A DNA stretch of 49,474 nt, the filler included, from Heptranchias perlo (Eukaryota): the NCBI RefSeq assembly GCF_035084215.1. It is 3 parts of 3 records of this genome, joined end to end, with 100 filler letters (N's around TTAATTAATTAA, not from the genome) between each part and the next. Parts side by side here need not be neighbours in the genome. Positions count along the whole stretch, not along the records: positions 30,060 to 49,474 come from NW_027139268.1; 2 more parts are not named here. The stretch is one strand, 5' to 3'. Within the stretch, counting starts at the first letter, position 1; each line of letters begins with the position of its first letter. The notes below the pieces were generated by a model, which did not search any database, had not been told where the DNA came from, and saw only the letters and a list, made by a program, of their open reading frames with translations. Shown one piece after another: positions 201 to 49,474 of this stretch. Position numbers and translations under genes: made by a program.

Positions 201-734
201 AAAGCCCGGATAATTTTGAGGGATAAATACTGGCCCAGGACACCGGGGAGTAGATTCCGAGGACTATTGAGAGGAGTTCCTGAGACTGACCCAATGATAA
301 TGTCTTCAGAGTGTGAGGTTCACCCATATTGGGGGAGGGCGGGAGGCTTCAGAGTGAGATCCTTCGAAACCCCTCCATCCTGTGTCCTCCCAAGCCCATT
401 CGTTCATTCAGCAGATAGTTCAGATCCTTCCTCGCCGATTGGTGAATTCTAGCTTTGAAGGGAATGGGAAAACCTACCTCATTGGCCAAACCTTTGGTCA
501 CCTGTCCTCATATCTCCCGATGTAGCTCGGTGTCGAATTTACGCTCCTGTATAAATGCAAGTTGTGTTTGGATCTCCCTGACCGAGCTGACACTTGACGA
601 TGCCCGTCCCCTGACTCCCGCTCCCCGCACCATTATCATCCTCCGAGGTGAGTCGTCCTCGCATGTGATGGCGGGAACGTAATCCCATCTTGAATACGTC
701 CCTTCGCCGTGACTGAAGTCTCTTCTCACTGTAG

Positions 735-1019
735 GTTTTGGGCTCCAACCCGCGATACGATTGGACGGTTACCGCAAGGAGGGAATCGGGATCCAGTGCC
801 AATCTTCGGGTTGGTACCCTGCTCCCGTGATGCACTGGGCGAGCGGAGACGCCAAGGACATGACGGCGGAGGCCCAGACTGAGGCGGTGAGGAACACGGA
901 CGGTCTCTACAGGGTCTCGAGCGCCCTGGAGGTGACCAGCCGACCCAGCAACACCTTCAAGTGCCTGATACGCAGCACCATCTTGAAACATTCAGAGGAG
1001 TCCAGTCTGCACATCCCAG
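735..1019 (+). CDS. Butyrophilin-like gene, IgC domain exon (upstream leader/IgV exons lie outside the window)
   Basis: tgtag acceptor at 733-734 and g|gtcagt donor at 1020, phase 1/1. Translation (G)FGLQPAIRLDGYRKEGIGIQCQSSGWYPAPVMHW...DGLYRVSSALEV...FKCLIRSTILKHSEESSLHIP has the BTN/B7 IgC pattern (CxSxGWYPxP, DGLY, second Cys). Confidence 0.93.
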
Positions 1020-1227
1020 GTCAGTGAGGTGACTGCACGCCATTGAACAGAGAGCAAAAAAAAAAACAGTGACCCCCCCCTCCGCGGGATGTGCCAGAGG
1101 TCGACCAGTGCCCAGCTCCAAACGATCGCCTCGGGAGAGGACGGTTAACAGATTGTGGGGGTGAGGGGAGCGAGGACGGATTCGCACTGTGCTCACAATT
1201 GGTGCAAAATAGGTTGCTGCATTCGTC

Positions 1228-10100: not shown

Positions 10101-10178
10101 TTTAGTGATTTCTGTACGTGCTAGTAGTTCGTGTGAATGGTCTGACTCCCCCCCCCCCACCCCCCTTTGTGTTGCCAG

Positions 10179-10699
10179 TTTCTGTGACCTTCGACCCCGA
10201 GACTGCCAACCCCTACCTGGCCATTTCGGAGGACCGGCTGACCATCTTCTTCAACGAGGACTGGCAGGACTTCCCGGACTGCGCAAAGAGATTCAACGCC
10301 CGGCTGTTTGTGGCGGCGACGGAAGGTTACGAGGTCGGGAGCGGGAGCCAGTACTGGGAAGTGAACGTGGGCAGTAAACCGGACTGGGACCTGGGAGTGG
10401 TGCGGGAGTCTGTCTCCAGGAACGACTGGGCCACGCTGGCCCCCGAGAACGGTTACTGGACCATCGGCAAGCGGGGCGAGAGCTACGAGGTCAACGGCGA
10501 GCCCCCCAAACCGATCGAGGGAAAGGCCACGGCCCAGATCATCGGGATTCACCTGGACTGCGACGGGGGAACGGTGGGGTTCTACAACGTCGACAGCATG
10601 GCCCTGATCCACACCTTCACCACGACGTTCACCGAGAAGATCTACCCCTTCTTCAGCCCTTGGGGGTCCAGCGAGGTTATGAAAATCTCTCCCCTTTAA
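10179..10699 (+). CDS. Butyrophilin-like gene, terminal B30.2 (PRY-SPRY) exon
   Basis: ttgccag acceptor, phase 1. VSVTFDPETANPYLAISED...RFN...QYWEVNVGSKPDWDLGV...PENGYWT...IGIHLDCDGGTVGFYN...IYPFFSP carries the LDP/WEV/LDYE-type B30.2 motifs; stop TAA at 10697-10699. Confidence 0.95.
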
Positions 10700-13870: not shown

Positions 13871-13970
13871 NNNNNNNNNNNNNNNNNNNNNNNNNNNNNN
13901 NNNNNNNNNNNNNNTTAATTAATTAANNNNNNNNNNNNNNNNNNNNNNNNNNNNNNNNNNNNNNNNNNNN
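13871..13970. other. Artificial contig spacer N44-TTAATTAATTAA-N44
   Basis: Exactly 100 bp with a palindromic six-frame stop linker; identical to 29960-30059. Confidence 0.95.
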
Positions 13971-23935: not shown

Positions 23936-24301
23936 CTGTCTGTCTTTCCGGGTTTTTTTTCTTTCCTTATCTGTCTTCCTTTCTCTGTGGATATATTCAG
24001 AGCTTCACATTCCTGACTGACAGGGTGACATACCGAGTGGGGGGTAACATACCGAGTGGGGGGTAACATACCGAGTGGGGGGCGACGGAGCGAGTGAGGA
24101 GAAGGTGGACCAAGCGGGGGGGAGACGGACCGAGCGAGGGGGAGACGGACTGACTGACTGGGTGGGGGGGTACCGAGTGACCCACGGGAGACGTGACTGA
24201 CTGACTGACTGACAGACGCACCGGCTAACAGGTGACAGTACAATGAACAACGATTCCCAATATTGTGATGTGTATTTTTCTCCTTCTCACTCGCGATACA
24301 G

Positions 24302-25923
24302 GTGACTTGGAGAGATTCCAGCCGTCGCGGAGAGACCCTCCAACCCCCCCTGGTCTGAATGTTCTTCTGTTCGTACGTGCTGGCGGCGACCTACAGCCCC
24401 CGATTGCAGATCAGAAGTATCGATGCGATCTGGTCTCCAAGAACAGCGGCGACGTTTACAACTACCCTAGCCCCCTCCACGCCGTGGCCCTGCAGAGCCC
24501 TTTGTTCTGTCTGTCTGGGCAGGATGGCAGACGCAGTCTAACCTGCACAGCGCCTCCCAATCCAGCGATAAGGCCAATGCCACTCGAAGCCAGACTTGGT
24601 CACGTAAATAAACCAGCCCAACGTCACGTACATGAGATCAACGAGGCCTCCACCGACCGAGATCCTGAAACGAGTCCAAAAGCTGCCATGCCAGAAAAGG
24701 ACCTCTCTCGACCCGCCGAGGCCATGAGAAATAACAGTAACGGCGACGGAGTGAGGGGGCAATTCGAGAACGCTGCCCTCCCACGACAGGGCTCCAGCTG
24801 GAGACTCCCAGCAGAAACCGCTGCCATCGCTAGACTGAGGCGGCAGGAGGCTACCGGCCGCTCGACAGTCGCGCCCTCGGCTAATCGGTTGGCGGGAGAG
24901 CCTCCGGCCTCCGTCGGCGCTCGTCCGTTCACGCCCGTGGCCAGTGGCTCGGGCCTACCCGTGCGGTCCGATTCCAAACGGCTGACCTACAGCGACCCCA
25001 CCGCACCCGGTGCCGAAGCGCCTCGGAGGAGCGGCCAGAGGTACGGGGGCTCAGCCAGGAGAGGCGGGCAGGCCTGGCCCGGGAACGGTTTTGTGCATGC
25101 TCAGTTTGTGCCGGCAGAACCCCGGCTACGGGTGCAAACCGCACCGGCCGGCAGCAGAACCAAGGTGGTAAAGATCAAGAGGAGGAACGGCGAGAAGGTG
25201 CGAGCCGGGAAGCGGCTGCCCGTCCGAGCCGGCGAGGGCTTTAGGACAACCCCTGATGGAAATGGCGGCTGCAGGCCGCAACTGGGCAGCGGTACGACGG
25301 CAACGGCCGACGCGGGCCCGGAATCGGCGGGCCGCTCGTGCTCGGAGTCCAGCCTTTACCCCATGTGCGGCAGGCGGTCCCCGTCGTGTTACAGACCCTC
25401 CTTCCAGAGCTCCGCCCCCGATGCCAAGGCCCGCGAAGGAGGGACGACGGCAAAACAGCGCAGGTGGCTGTCGTCCGTCGAGATATTCGCCCAGGCCCCC
25501 GCTGCCGGCGAGCTGTGCCGGGGAGCCCACCGGCAGAGAGCGGGGAGGGTTGGGGTGGCCAGGGGCAATGCAGGCTTCAGTCGGCCATCTAGGGACCAGG
25601 CCCGGAGCGAGTCGGACCAGTCTGAGTATTCGGCCGAGTGCGCCTCGCTCTTCCACTCCACCGTGGCCGAGACCAGCGGGGACGAGCGGAGCGACCACAC
25701 GGCCAACTGCTTCGGTGACGGCGAGTCGAGCGACGGAGGCCTGAGCATCCCCGCGGGGGGCAGTAGCTCCCTCGTCTGGCCGCAGGGCTCCGAGACGGCG
25801 GGGGCGACCAGCCGGAGCAGCCATTCCGAGGCCAGGATTTGCCGCATAAAGGCGTCGAAAGCACTGAAGAAAAAGATCCGGAGATTCCAACCCGAGACCT
25901 TAAAGATTATGACCATGGTTTAA
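24302..25923 (+). CDS. DACT2: Dapper homolog 2, terminal exon 4
   Basis: gatacag acceptor, phase 1. GDLERF...KYRCDLVSKNSGDVYNYPSPLHAVALQSPLF...FVHAQFVP...SEYSAECASLFHST...CRIKASKALKKKIRRFQPETLKIMTMV*; the MTMV PDZ-binding end is DACT2-type. Confidence 0.95.
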
Positions 25924-29959: not shown

Positions 29960-30059
29960 NNNNNNNNNNNNNNNNNNNNNNNNNNNNNNNNNNNNNNNNN
30001 NNNTTAATTAATTAANNNNNNNNNNNNNNNNNNNNNNNNNNNNNNNNNNNNNNNNNNNN
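29960..30059. other. Artificial contig spacer N44-TTAATTAATTAA-N44
   Basis: Identical to 13871-13970. Confidence 0.95.
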
Positions 30060-30980
30060 AGTACTGAGGGAGTGATGCACTGTCGGAGGGGCAGTACTGA
30101 GGGAGTGATGCACTCTCGGAGAGGCAGTACTGAGGGAGTGATGCATTGTCGGAGAGGCAGTACTGAGGGAGTGATGCATTGTCGGAGGGGCAGTACTGAG
30201 GGAGTGATGCACTGTGGGAGGGGCAGTACTGAGGGAGTGATGCATTGTCGGAGAGGCAGTACTGAGGGAGTGATGCATTGTCGGAGAGGCAGTACTGAGG
30301 GAGTGATGCATTGTCGGAGAGGCAGTACTGAGGGAGTGCTGCACTGTCGGAGGGGCAGTACTGAGGGAGTGATGCACTGTCGGAGAGGCAGTACTGAGGG
30401 AGTGATGCATTGTCGGAGAGGCAGTACTGAGGGAGTGATGCATTGTCGGAGGGGCAGTACTGAGTGAGTGATGCATTGTCGGAGGGGCAGTACTGAGGGA
30501 GTGATGCATTGTCGGAGAGGCAATACTGAGGGAGTGATGCATTGTCGGAGGGACAGTACTGAGGGAGTGATGCATTGTCGGAGAGGCAGTACTGAGGGAG
30601 TGCTGCACTGTCGGAGGGGCAGTACTGAGGGAGTGATGCACTGTCGGAGAGGCAGTACTGAGGGAGTGATGCATTGTCGGAGAGGCAGTACTGAGGGAGT
30701 GATGCATTGTCGGAGGGGCAGTACTGAGGGAGTGATGCATTGTCGGAGGGGCAGTACTGAGGGAGTGATGCATTGTCGGAGAGGCAATACTGAGGGAGTG
30801 ATGCATTGTCGGAGAGGCAATACTGAGGGAGTGATGCATTGTCGGAGGGACAGTACTGAGGGAGTGATGCATTGTCGGAGAGGCAGTACTGAGGGAGTGC
30901 TGCACTGTCGGAGGGGCAGTACTGAGGGAGTGCTGCATTGTCGGAGGGGCAGTACTGAGGGAGTGCTGCACTGTCGGAGA
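30060..30980. repeat. 33-bp minisatellite (about 28 copies) derived from the DeuSINE core
   Basis: Unit gtactgagggagtgatgcattgtcggagaggca; the last unit runs on into normal SINE sequence (tgccgtccttcagatgagacgttaaatcgaggccc). Confidence 0.92.
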
Positions 30981-31302
30981 TGCCGTCCTTCAGATGAGAC
31001 GTTAAATCGAGGCCCCGTCTTCCTGTTCAAACGAACATAAAAAGAACCAATTGCTCCCATTTCTCCCTCAATCCACACCAATAAAAACAGATGAACAAAT
31101 CAATCATCTCATTGCCATTTGCTGTGCTGAAAATGTCTGCCATGTTACTCCCAGATAGTGCCAATGACCAGGTCATCCCAAGTCATTTAATGGGTGTAAA
31201 GTGGTTCGGGACATTTCTCCGAGACAGGATAAGGCTCTATATGGATACAAATCCTTTCCTCCTGTCAGTCGATAGCTGCACCGAATCTGTGAGGATACTC
31301 AC

Positions 31303-31563
31303 TCGAGGCACCGTGTTGCTGTCGGTAAAATATCTCGGCGTTTCCTCTGACCAGACCATGGAACCCCGCCATTGTGATGGCGATGGCGTCCCAGTGATGG
31401 TTGTCGAAGGAGTCGGCCATCCACTGCTGTCTGGGCACAGTCCGCTGAAGGGTGCTGTCGAAATACACTATCTCATAGTCATCGAGCATCGCGACCAAGC
31501 TGTACTCGGGCATCTCGGCCCCGCCACGGCTCAGTATGTAGTAAAATGCGAGGATGTGGAAAT
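31303..31563 (-). CDS. MHC class I-like heavy chain, alpha1-domain exon (non-classical)
   Basis: Minus-strand cctgcag acceptor and a|gtgagt donor, 261 nt, phase 1/1. (D)FHILAFYYILSRGGAEMPEYSLVAMLDDYEIVYFDSTLQRTVPRQQWMADSFDNHHWDAIAITMAGFHGLVRGNAEIFYRQQHGAS retains the class I alpha1 landmarks H3, PE, LDD, YFDS, PRxxW and W60. Confidence 0.88.
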
Positions 31564-31651
31564 CTGCAGGATCACAGACAGAAACCAGTCTCAAAAATGA
31601 CGTTAATCATAAGTAACTCAAAGTGGAAACGGCTAATGCTGAGCCTGGTTA

Positions 31652-46317: not shown

Positions 46318-48695
46318 ATGGTGGGATTCCCCCCTGTCTGTCTGGTGTTTTGGTCAGTCTGGGAGCGGTGATTGATGGTGAGATTCCCCCCTGTCTGTCT
46401 GGTGTTTTGGTCAGTCTGGGAGCGGTCACTGATGGTGAGATTCCCCCCTGTCTGTCTGGTGTTTTGGTCAGTCTGGGAGCGGTGACTGATGGTGAGATTC
46501 CCCCCTGTCTGTCTGGTGTTTTGGTCAGTCTGGGAGCGGTGACTGATGGTGGGATTCCCCCCTGTCTGTCTGGTGTTTTGGTCAGTCTGGGAGCGGTGAT
46601 TGATGGTGGGATTCCCCCCTGTCTGTCTGGTGTTTTGGTCAGTCTGGGAGCGGTCACTGATGGTGAGATTCCCCCCTGTCTGTCTGGTGTTTTGGTCAGT
46701 CTGGGAGCGGTCACTGATGGTGAGATTCCCCTCTGTCTGTCTGGTGTTTTGGTTAGTCTGGGAGCGGTGATTGATGGTGAGATTCCCCTCTGTCTGTCTG
46801 GTGTTTTGGTCAGTCTGGGAGCGGTGACTGATGGTGAGATTCCCCTCTGTCTGTCTGGTGTTTTGGTCAGTCTGGGAGCGGTGACTGATGGTGAGATTCC
46901 CCCTGTCTGTCTGGTGTTTTGGTCAGTCTGGGAGCGGTGACTGATGGTGGGATTCCCCCTTGTCTGTCTGGTGTTTTGGTCAGTCTGGGAGCGGTCACTG
47001 ATGGTGAGATTCCCCCTCTGTCTGTCTGGTGTTTTGGTCAGTCTGGGAGCGGTGACTGATGGTGAGATTCCCCCCTGTCTGTCTGGTGTTTTGGTCAGTC
47101 TGGGAGCGGTGACTGATGGTGAGATTCCCCCTCTGTCTGTCTGGTGTTTTGGTCAGTCTGGGAGCGTTGATTGATGGTGAGATTCCCCCCTGTGTGTCTG
47201 GTGTTTTGGTCAGTCTAGGAGCGGTCACTGATGGTGAGATTCCCCCTCTGTCTGTCTGGTGTTTTGGTCAGTCTGGGAGCGGTGATTGATGGTGAGATTC
47301 CCCTCTGTCTGTCTGGTGTTTTGGTCAGTCTGGGAGCGGTGACTGATGGTGGGATTCCCCTCTGTCTGGTGTTTTGGTCAGTCTGGGAGCGGTCACTGAT
47401 GGTGAGATTCCCCCCTGTCTGTCTGGTGTTTTGGTCAGTCTGGGAGCGGTGACTGATGGCGAGATTCCCCTCTGTCTGTCTGGTGTTTTGGTCAGTCTGG
47501 GAGCGGTGATTGATGGTGGATTCCCCCCTGTCTGTCTGGTGTTTTGGTCAGTCTGGAGCGGTCACTGATGGTGAGATTCCCCTCTGTCTGTCTGGTGTTT
47601 TGGTCAGTCTGGGAGCGGTCACTGATGGTGAGATTCCCCCCTGTCTGTCTGGTGTTTTGGTCAGTCTGGGAGCGGTGACTGATGGTGAGATTCCCCCTGT
47701 CTGTCTGGTGTTTTGGTCAGTCTGGGAGCGGTGACTGATGGTGGGATTCCCCCCTGTCTGTCTGGTGTTTTGGTCAGTCTGGGAGCGGTCACTGATGGTG
47801 AGATTCCCCCCTGTCTGTCTGGTGTTTTGGTCAGTCTGGGAGCGGTCACTGATGGTGAGATTCCCCCCTGTCTGTCTGGTGTTTTGGTCAGTCTGGGAGC
47901 GGTGACTGATGGTGAGATTCCCCTCTGTCTGTCTGGTGTTTTGGTCAGTCTGGGAGCGGTCACTGATGGTGAGATTCCCCCCTCTGTCTGTCTGGTGTTT
48001 TGGTCAGTCTGGGAGCGGTCACTGATGGTGAGATTCCCCCCTGTCTGTCTGGTGTTTTGGTCAGTCTGGGAGCGGTGATTGATGGTGAGATTCCCCCCTG
48101 TCTGTCTGGTGTTTTGTCAGTCTTGGAGCGGTGATTGATGGTGAGATTCCCCTCTGTCTGTCTGGTGTTTTGGTCAGTCTGGGAGCGGTGATTGATGGTG
48201 AGATTCCCCTCTGTCTGTCTGGTGTTTTGGTCAGTCTGGGAGCGGTGATTGATGGTGAGATTCCCCCCTGTCTGTCTGGTGTTTTGGTCAGTCTGGGAGC
48301 GGTGACTGATGGTGAGATTCCCCCTGTCTGTCTGGTGTTTTGGTCAGTCTGGAGCGGTGATTGATGGTGAGATTCCCCTCTGTCTGTCTGGTGTTTTGGT
48401 CAGTCTGGGAGCGGTGATTGATGGTGAGATTCCCCCCTGTCTGTCTGGTGTTTTGGTCAGTCTGGGAGCGGTCACTGATGGTGAGATTCCCTCTGTCTGT
48501 CTGGTGTTTTGGTCAGTCTGGGAGCGGTGATTGATGGTGAGATTCCCCCTGTCTGTCTGGTGTTTTGGTCAGTCTGGGAGCGGTGATTGATGGTGAGATT
48601 CCCCCCTGTCTGTCTGGTGTTTTGGTCAGTCTGGGAGCGGTGATTGATGGTGAGATTCCCCCTGTCTGTCTGGTGTTTTGGTCAGTCTGGGAGCA
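46318..48695. repeat. 57-bp minisatellite, about 41 copies
   Basis: Unit gatggtgagattccccc(c)tgtctgtctggtgttttggtcagtctgggagcggt(g/c)a(c/t)t, directly visible. Confidence 0.96.
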
Positions 48696-48796
48696 GCAAT
48701 GGCGGTGCTCATTACCCACAAGGCCGCGCGGCTCGGAAAGCGGTCCGCCCGCGGCCCCGGTGCACTCTGGGGAGACGGTCAGAGGCTCCGTCACGG

Positions 48797-49474
48797 AGAG
48801 AGAGAGAAGGAGAAAGGAGAGAGGAGAGAGAGAGAGAGGAGGACAGGTGAGGGGGAGAGAGGAGGACAGGTGAGGGGGAGAGAGAGGAGGACAGGTGAGG
48901 GGGAGAGAGAGGAGGACAGGTGAGGAGAGAGAGAGGAGGAGAGAGAGAGGAGAGAGAGGAGACAGGTGAGGAGAGAGAGGAGGACAGGTGAGGGGAGAGA
49001 GGAGGACAGGTGAGGGGGAGAGAGAGGAGGACAGGTGAGGGGGAGAGAGAGGAGGACAGGTGAGGGGGAGAGAGAGGAGGACAGGTGAGGGGGAGAGAGA
49101 GGAGGACAGGTGAGGCGGAGAGAGAGGAGGACAGGTGAGGGGGAGAGAGAGAGGAGGACAGGTGAGGGGGAGAGAGAGGAGGACAGGTGAGGGGGAGAGA
49201 GAGGAGGAGAGAGAGAGGAGAGAGAGGAGGACAGGTGAGGAGAGAGAGGAGGACAGGTGAGGGGGAGAGAGGAGGACAGGTGAGGGGGAGAGAGAGAGGA
49301 CAGGTGAGGGGAGAGAGAGGAGGACAGGTGAGGGGGAGAGAGAGGAGGACAGGTGAGGGGGAGAGAGAGGAGGACAGGTGAGGGGGAGAGAGAGGAGGAC
49401 AGGTGAGGGGGAGAGAGAGGGAGGACAGGTGAGGGGGAGAGAGAGAGGAGGACAGGTGAGGGGGAGAGAGAGGA
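48797..49474. repeat. GA-rich minisatellite (about 24-26 bp unit, gagagaggaggacaggtgagggg)
   Basis: Directly visible; runs off the window end. Confidence 0.93.

Follow-up and report, generated by a model that had tools for sequence, protein, structure and literature searches.

A conserved MHC class I lineage of sharks and rays beside UGA, with an apolar groove that likely takes lipids rather than peptides

In classical MHC class I molecules, from sharks to humans, the ends of the bound peptide are held by Y7, Y59 and R/Y84. CD1-like lipid presentation in sharks, which concerns the non-classical molecules UFA and UGA, is itself a recent finding. Both are stated to bind CD1d-like lipids, on the basis of a crystal structure and mass spectrometry conveyed as a personal communication (PMC12562908, section 2.1), and UFA has been named CD1-like from unpublished work (PMC10751288). 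The nurse shark sequence labelled UGA in the supplement of Verissimo et al. 2023 (PMC10751288) is that of PDB 9CH4, titled 'shark nonclassical MHC class I, UGA' and released 2026-03-18, and PDB 8GM8 was identified as UFA through the match of its chain to the sequence labelled nurse shark UFA in the same supplement. Although CD1-like lipid binding in sharks has thus been reported for UFA and UGA, the lineage described here, which we call lineage X, is apparently unnamed.

UGA is the nearest relative of lineage X in sequence, tree and fold, and it likewise has an apolar groove and occurs in sharks and rays. The two have in common T66, A68, G69, F70, G72, G76, G97 and A123 as well as an alpha2 helix motif (M152-N-x-Y-F-K-x-L159-L-E-K-D163-C). 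They differ at F7, H59, M or I63, M67, C99 and W167 of X, for which UGA has Y7, Y59, a variable residue, a polar residue, F99 and L167; compared with UGA, X has also lost the N86 glycan site, gained one at N107, acquired a more apolar groove, and has no YxxPhi motif in its tail. UFA falls in the same alpha1-alpha2 clade, has lost the peptide anchors and is the other molecule reported as CD1-like, but it has a long branch, a shorter alpha1 end and alpha2, and only ~26% identity to X. The CD1 molecules of mammals, birds and reptiles are probably alike in function, with apolar grooves, no polymorphism and lost anchors, and the human CD1 row of the PMC10751288 alignment agrees with X in G97 and in aromatic or apolar residues at positions 55, 63, 67, 70 and 81. 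Unlike CD1, X has an apparently MHC-linked sawfish ortholog and lacks an endosomal tyrosine motif, and its sequence similarity to CD1 is low.

The alpha1 exon and its gene in Heptranchias perlo

The window, the whole stretch of 49,474 nucleotides from Heptranchias perlo that was analysed, consists of three joined assembly pieces (Table 1). Because the joins are artificial spacers, gene neighbourhoods across them are untrustworthy.

Table 1. Features of the window, with positions counted along its full length
Feature	Position	Strand	Basis or remark
alpha1 exon, non-classical MHC class I heavy chain (lineage X)	31303..31563	-	ORF, splice sites, Pfam/PDB matches
Splice acceptor, pyrimidine-rich tract ending CAG	31564..31600	-	sequence; putative-RNA contig ends at 31564
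Splice donor GTGAGT	31297..31302	-	sequence; putative-RNA contig ends at 31300
Codon F7	31546-31544	-	in alpha1 exon
Codon H59	31396-31394	-	in alpha1 exon
Codon I63	31384-31382	-	in alpha1 exon
Codon Q84	31321-31319	-	in alpha1 exon
Codon H86	31315-31313	-	in alpha1 exon
33-bp tandem array, 28 copies, intron 2	30060..30980	.	assembly piece ends here
57-bp array, 42 copies, intron flank of alpha1 exon	46318-48694		
Array region bounding the exon's piece at its other end	46318-49474		
Artificial spacer: 44 N, 12-base all-frame stop linker, 44 N	29960..30059	.	not part of gene
Second spacer, same N44/12-base stop linker/N44 design	13871-13970		
Butyrophilin-like gene, Ig-C exon	713-1027	+	first piece; Pfam C2-set_3
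Butyrophilin-like gene, PRY/SPRY (B30.2) exon	10109-10699	+	first piece
Dapper/DACT gene, large last exon	24247-25923	+	second piece; Pfam E=1.8e-86

Read from 31563 to 31303, the exon has 261 nt, phase 1/1, and is open across 86 codons; the acceptor on its 31563 side ends in TCTGTCTGTGATCCTGCAG. An intact exon of this length with good splice sites had been proposed, with no strand given, in an earlier sequence-only reading of this DNA, and the minus strand bears it out. The exon scores 27 bits against Pfam MHC_I (E=3.9e-6), slightly below the whole-protein cut-off of 28.3 because it represents half of that domain, and the best PDB match of its translation is at E=1.2e-22. Residues were assigned HLA-A2 numbers manually, and the assignment was verified at 21/21 landmark residues; it is consistent with the HLA-A2/UGA alignment in the supplement of PMC10751288, and the exon aligns to UGA without gaps. 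Under this numbering the five replacements that the earlier reading had listed (Y7 by F, Y59 by H, E63 by I, R/Y84 by Q, N86 by H) are all present, as are the residues that it had named at ten further positions (L5, Y9, Y22, L24, M67, F70, L73, V74, I80 and F81).

At the protein level the exon agrees 100% with alpha1 of P0002, a full-length H. perlo record of 350 aa, which comprises a leader, an alpha1-alpha2 platform (Pfam MHC_I, 96.6 bits), a C1-set alpha3 domain (58.4 bits), a transmembrane segment and a tail; its alpha1 identity with three other sharks is 78-80%. A spliced message was sought in three runs from one sample whose RNA label is a guess, and the exon is covered in one of them. 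In this run (X5), a 1438-base contig matches the window at 31300-31564 only and runs on for 1085 bases towards the 3' end of the message and for 88 towards its 5' end, with zero depth in the flanking intron bins; it thus covers exactly the alpha1 exon and skips both introns. The other two runs (X7 and X8) leave the exon uncovered, which has no bearing on expression. In the DNA run of the X5 sample (X1), the exon and its flanks lie within one contig, and X1 and X5 carry the identical single exon difference from the window, a synonymous change at 31448 in the third position of L38. Since this variant is shared by a contig with intron flanks and a spliced one, the copy of the exon that sits between these introns is most likely the one that is spliced. 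The allele comparison, from these two sources only, amounts to 1 synonymous difference in 261 nt.

Other exons of P0002 were not found in the window by tblastn, a 14-mer scan or a degenerate leader pattern, 17.9 kb upstream included. The same absence of leader, alpha2, alpha3 and transmembrane exons would be expected of an orphan exon or a pseudogene, duplicated away from the true gene. However, the piece ends 1.2 kb downstream of the alpha1 exon, at a tandem array and a spacer, which accounts for the missing alpha2, alpha3 and transmembrane exons, and its upstream end also lies in arrays, so that the leader exon must be >17.9 kb upstream or off the piece. Together with the variant shared between the DNA contig and the spliced contig, this makes a stray exon extremely improbable. 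The lineage X gene in H. perlo is real, intact and probably expressed, the RNA label being putative. The sequence-only reading had called for the recovery of a full-length sequence and had held that a lack of alpha2 and alpha3 exons or of a transcript would speak against it; the P0002 gene model and the spliced, putatively RNA, contig supply the former and remove the latter objection.

Lineage X beside UGA and UFA

Database searches recovered lineage X orthologs in 12 elasmobranch species, including sharks (Heptranchias, Pristiophorus, Scyliorhinus torazame, Mustelus, Hemiscyllium, Chiloscyllium, Stegostoma and Cetorhinus) and batoids (Pristis, Leucoraja, Hypanus and Mobula, the last added by a later profile search). 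Over alpha1-alpha2 the orthologs are 68-79% identical to P0002. Counted as database clusters rather than genome copies, there is one per species in 11/12 species and two in Pristiophorus, where a second model (P0003) lacks the first half of alpha2 and may represent a second copy, an isoform or an annotation error. The next group beyond X is UGA (P0014-P0018), at 45-48% in the same search; its member P0018 matches 9CH4 at E=1e-127. Between the X and UGA sequences at large, alpha1-alpha2 identity is 36-46%, compared with at least 63% within X and at least 59% within UGA, and both lineages are carried by Heptranchias, Scyliorhinus torazame, Cetorhinus and Pristiophorus. The 20 matches of the profile search include no X member from chimaeras or bony fish; this search is word-indexed, and absence from it weighs little.

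Trees were calculated from 46, 27 and 32 rows chosen from 167 extracted alpha1-alpha2 domains, plus three later matches. The reference rows, including those for UAA and UBA, are unnamed proteins that were labelled by eye against the sequence set in the supplement of PMC10751288. This set holds 26 alpha1 sequences, 17 of them from cartilaginous fish, with the labels UAA, UAA-2, UBA, UCA, UDA, UFA, UGA and UHA. Lineage X formed a clade with support of 100/99-100, UGA a separate one (100/99), and UFA stood apart (100/100); a placement of X inside the UGA ortholog clade that includes 9CH4 was rejected by these separate, fully supported clades, and one inside UFA by the position of UFA and its low identity. 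All three were united in alpha1-alpha2 at 97/95 with the mixture model and at 99/94 and 99/91 without it. A sister relationship of X and UGA that excludes UFA was weak (78/52), and the fork is open in the mixture-model tree. As the X and UGA clades each contain shark and ray members, their duplication predates the shark-ray split.

Clustering within classical UAA, which the sequence-only reading had named as grounds for giving it up, is excluded: a clade of X with UAA/UBA was rejected at AU p=3.3e-8. Classical UAA (PDB 6LUP) and UBA resemble X in fold, in domain and exon structure and in the beta2m contact residues, whereas identity is ~30%. The alpha1-alpha2 trees also stand against placing X with UDA, UCA-UEA or UBA, one UCA-like row standing for UCA/UEA. 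On alpha3, X groups with a UCA/UEA-like row (84/88); this discordance is insignificant (AU p=0.28 for X+UGA on alpha3), and domain shuffling in X is not supported.

By eye, X matched none of the labelled UAA, UBA, UCA, UDA, UFA, UGA or UHA sequences within the PMC10751288 supplement. The sequence-only reading had left undecided whether the exon belongs to a described chondrichthyan non-classical lineage or an undescribed one. The first option found no counterpart among the supplement's labels, and the distinct clade beside UGA and UFA is in line with the second. From sequence relationships, X is a distinct, old paralog within the recognised CD1-like group and is possibly unnamed, yet the primary UFA/UGA literature may name it, and earlier literature may have counted it within 'low-copy UGA' or as a second UGA.

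Two observations concern neighbouring groups. The chimaera sequences P0056 and P0121, which match the published 'Cmilii UGA', fell outside elasmobranch UGA and X in the alpha1-alpha2 trees, and the 'Cmilii UGA' label may cover a different lineage from elasmobranch UGA. P0095 and P0131, a supported pair of divergent class I sequences with H59 and few anchors, lay near the UFA/UGA/X clade in a FastTree analysis and are possible bony-vertebrate relatives of it.

Groove, fold and likely ligand

Nine peptide anchors were scored (Y7, Y59, R/Y84, Y/F123, T143, K146, W147, Y159 and Y171), along with 36 positions that we assume, after the HLA-A2 pocket literature, to face the groove and a helix-top list from the same source. 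The groove could be scored in 159/167 domains, eight having been dropped for >3 gaps (the X member P0012 among them), and the register of some divergent rows is off around position 59. Each of the 10 scored X members keeps 1-2/9 anchors and has lost 7-8/9, compared with 8-9/9 kept in UAA/UBA; with this count and the rejected UAA/UBA clade, X does not class as classical Ia. The alpha2 domain has A123, L143, R146 and L159 at anchor positions, and only W147 and Y171 are conserved, which excludes the restoration of a polar peptide groove by alpha2 that the sequence-only reading had foreseen as a refutation.

Groove hydropathy is 1.21-1.55 in X, with 2 charged residues, and places 10/10 scored members within the top 15/159. 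The values are 0.28-0.80 in UGA and, in 57 peptide-type domains (8-9/9 anchors), -0.19 on average with a maximum of 0.38 and 6.1 charged residues. The earlier case for a hydrophobic groove had been built on 12 positions. All 12/12 are apolar here, against a mean of 8.4 and a range of 5-11 in the peptide-type domains, and the 36-position score is extreme; however, eight of the positions listed (5, 7, 9, 22, 24, 74, 80 and 81) usually carry apolar residues in peptide-type molecules too, so the list itself overstates the case. Taken as a whole, the composition and conservation of the groove suggest a molecule whose ligands are likely lipids rather than peptides.

Retention of W147 and Y171, together with a basic residue at 146, would also be consistent with the binding of hydrophobic peptides or short lipopeptides with N-acylated residues, in the manner of chicken YF1, which binds N-myristoyl or N-palmitoyl glycine. 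With UGA excepted, the fold of X is equally near to peptide-binding class I and to YF1 (9EB3/9EB4, Z 27.5). Against such ligands, Y7, Y59, R/Y84, T143, Y159 and F/Y123 are replaced and neither peptide terminus keeps its hydrogen-bond network, and we regard this option as quite unlikely.

The X ectodomain was modelled by AlphaFold2 as a canonical class I fold (pLDDT 94.7). Its best structural match is 9CH4 (TM 0.93, rmsd 1.9, Z 29.7, 41% identity), followed by a peptide-binding bird class I at Z 28.6; with a lead of only ~1 in Z, the fold alone is uninformative on the ligand. CD1 chains are absent from the best 60 PDB sequence matches over alpha1-alpha2 and from the best 50 structural rows, and the MHC_I score of X exceeds that for the CD1-type family MHC_I_3 (29 bits, below the cut-off of that family).

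MR1 chains rank high in the sequence and Foldseek lists, RefSeq names the genes MR1-like, and H59 aligns with the histidine of the MR1 DHW motif in a similar fold, all of which might point to a presenter of small metabolites. Nevertheless, the residue aligned to the Schiff-base lysine K43 of MR1 is T, I, C or A, with lysine in 0/11 X sequences, Y and G stand at positions 9 and 97 in place of arginines, and an X+MR1 clade was rejected at AU p=4e-5 (one MR1-like row). An MR1-like role is therefore very unlikely, and the RefSeq label is misleading. Of the 'CD1/MR1-like' function that had been proposed from the exon, the CD1-like half is the best reading, as a prediction, because the nearest relative UGA is reported to bind lipids (PMC12562908), and the MR1-like half falls away.

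Conservation within X is concentrated in the groove, at 0.83 compared with 0.73 for the remaining positions (0.75 overall; p=0.019). The helix top, at 0.74, is not raised (p=0.61), and UGA has no comparable groove excess (p=0.25). Residues invariant in 11/11 X sequences are H59, T66, N77, Q84, G97, C99, A123, L143, R146, Y155, F156, L159, D163 and Y171. C99 comes in addition to the bonded pair C101-C164; UGA has F99 in 6/6 sequences, and cysteine occurs here in only 5/150 other domains. Nearly all 17 X and UGA rows have A68, G69, G72 and G76 on the top of the alpha1 helix, and the consensus residues of the two lineages are identical at 17/36 groove positions. The loss of the N86 glycan site, noted previously from the exon, holds in 11/11 orthologs, but 11/11 have also gained an N-x-T site in alpha2, at around position 107.

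These patterns bear on whether X holds a ligand at all. HFE, MICA and FcRn are class I-like molecules that act as stress or self ligands or as transport receptors, and a ligand-free class Ib molecule of this kind would have its groove closed by apolar side chains. The bulky residues F7, Y9, M67, F70, W133, W147, M152, Y155, F156 and W167 could close the groove of X, and the strongly conserved helix-top glycines would fit a protein partner. Yet a cavity would remain at the invariant G97, C99 and A123, conservation is higher in the groove than on the helix top, and the sister lineage UGA is reported with lipid (PMC12562908), which together make a closed groove unlikely.

We therefore favor, with reasonable confidence, the reading of X as an intact non-classical class I heavy chain and close UGA paralog, likely paired with beta2m and likely presenting lipids instead of peptides. 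Such a chain would fold as class I with beta2m; it keeps the alpha3 LP motif and Q96, D119, G120 and D122, which we take to be beta2m contact residues. Along the secretory route it would acquire an acyl-chain ligand (a phospholipid, sphingolipid or fatty acyl) and bury it in a cavity that the small residues G97, C99 and A123 open at the floor and that is lined by F7, Y9, L24, I/M63, M67, F70, L73, V74, F81, I114, L116, M152, F156 and L159. The exposed head group would sit close to T66, N77, Y155 and D163, the few polar residues that are invariant. With C in place of F99, F in place of Y7 and apolar residues at 63 and 67, the A-end pocket is predicted to be larger and more apolar than that of UGA, and the flat, invariant helix top (A68, G69, G72 and G76, as in UGA) may be the surface that a conserved receptor recognises, for example a semi-invariant TCR or an NK-type receptor.

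Trafficking, linkage and significance

The YxxPhi endosomal tail motif is present in CD1b, CD1c and CD1d and absent from CD1a, which traffics shallower than CD1b/d. In the gene models, cytoplasmic YxxPhi occurs in 0/12 X tails, compared with a terminal, membrane-near motif in 2/6 UGA tails. The two UGA models concerned, P0017 of Cetorhinus and P0018 of S. torazame, have short tails ending in YxxPhi, like endosome-targeted CD1 isoforms; the other UGA models are without it, perhaps through isoform choice, and a third UGA match sits in a doubtful model extension. Lineage X would be of low polymorphism and, without YxxPhi, would sample a shallower compartment than UGA, unrouted to lysosomes. A more ambitious scenario, which we consider rather improbable, is a three-member CD1-like family (UFA, UGA and X) that predates the shark-ray split and divides its labour like CD1a-d, with X as the surface or early-endosome form whose Cys99 covalently captures acyl chains or electrophilic lipids. 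The invariant, unpaired Cys99 on the groove floor would form a thioester or adduct, as a thiol counterpart of the MR1 Schiff-base lysine; the literature found on shark class I contains no description of covalent thiol capture by a class I molecule.

The H. perlo X and UGA genes (P0002 and P0015) are each recorded on a 529,794-base contig, which suggests that they are linked. P0007, the ortholog from sawfish, comes from a record of 19.91 Mb, and sawfish MHC genes on chr34 reach 19.83 Mb. The table of this chromosome has exactly one gene with the RefSeq name of P0007, LOC127585976, which is marked MHC-Ib and lies in the class Ib cluster directly before three 'F10-like' genes. From name and record size, this gene is plausibly the sawfish X ortholog, and hence MHC-linked. 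Butyrophilin-like genes are present on the sawfish MHC chromosome too, and no dact gene is listed in three elasmobranch MHC chromosome tables. A linkage of the alpha1 exon to the butyrophilin-like and DACT exons of the window was rejected, the three being on separate pieces divided by artificial spacers.

What lineage X would add to the known UFA and UGA is a separate lineage, a free groove cysteine and a tail that differs from that of UGA, and it is directly testable with its sister UGA recently crystallised (9CH4). If the favored reading is true, X would be a third, strongly conserved lipid-type paralog kept in sharks and rays. This would mean that the ancestor of elasmobranchs already had several lipid-presenting isoforms, distinct in their pockets and in their trafficking, a diversification parallel to that of mammalian CD1a-e.
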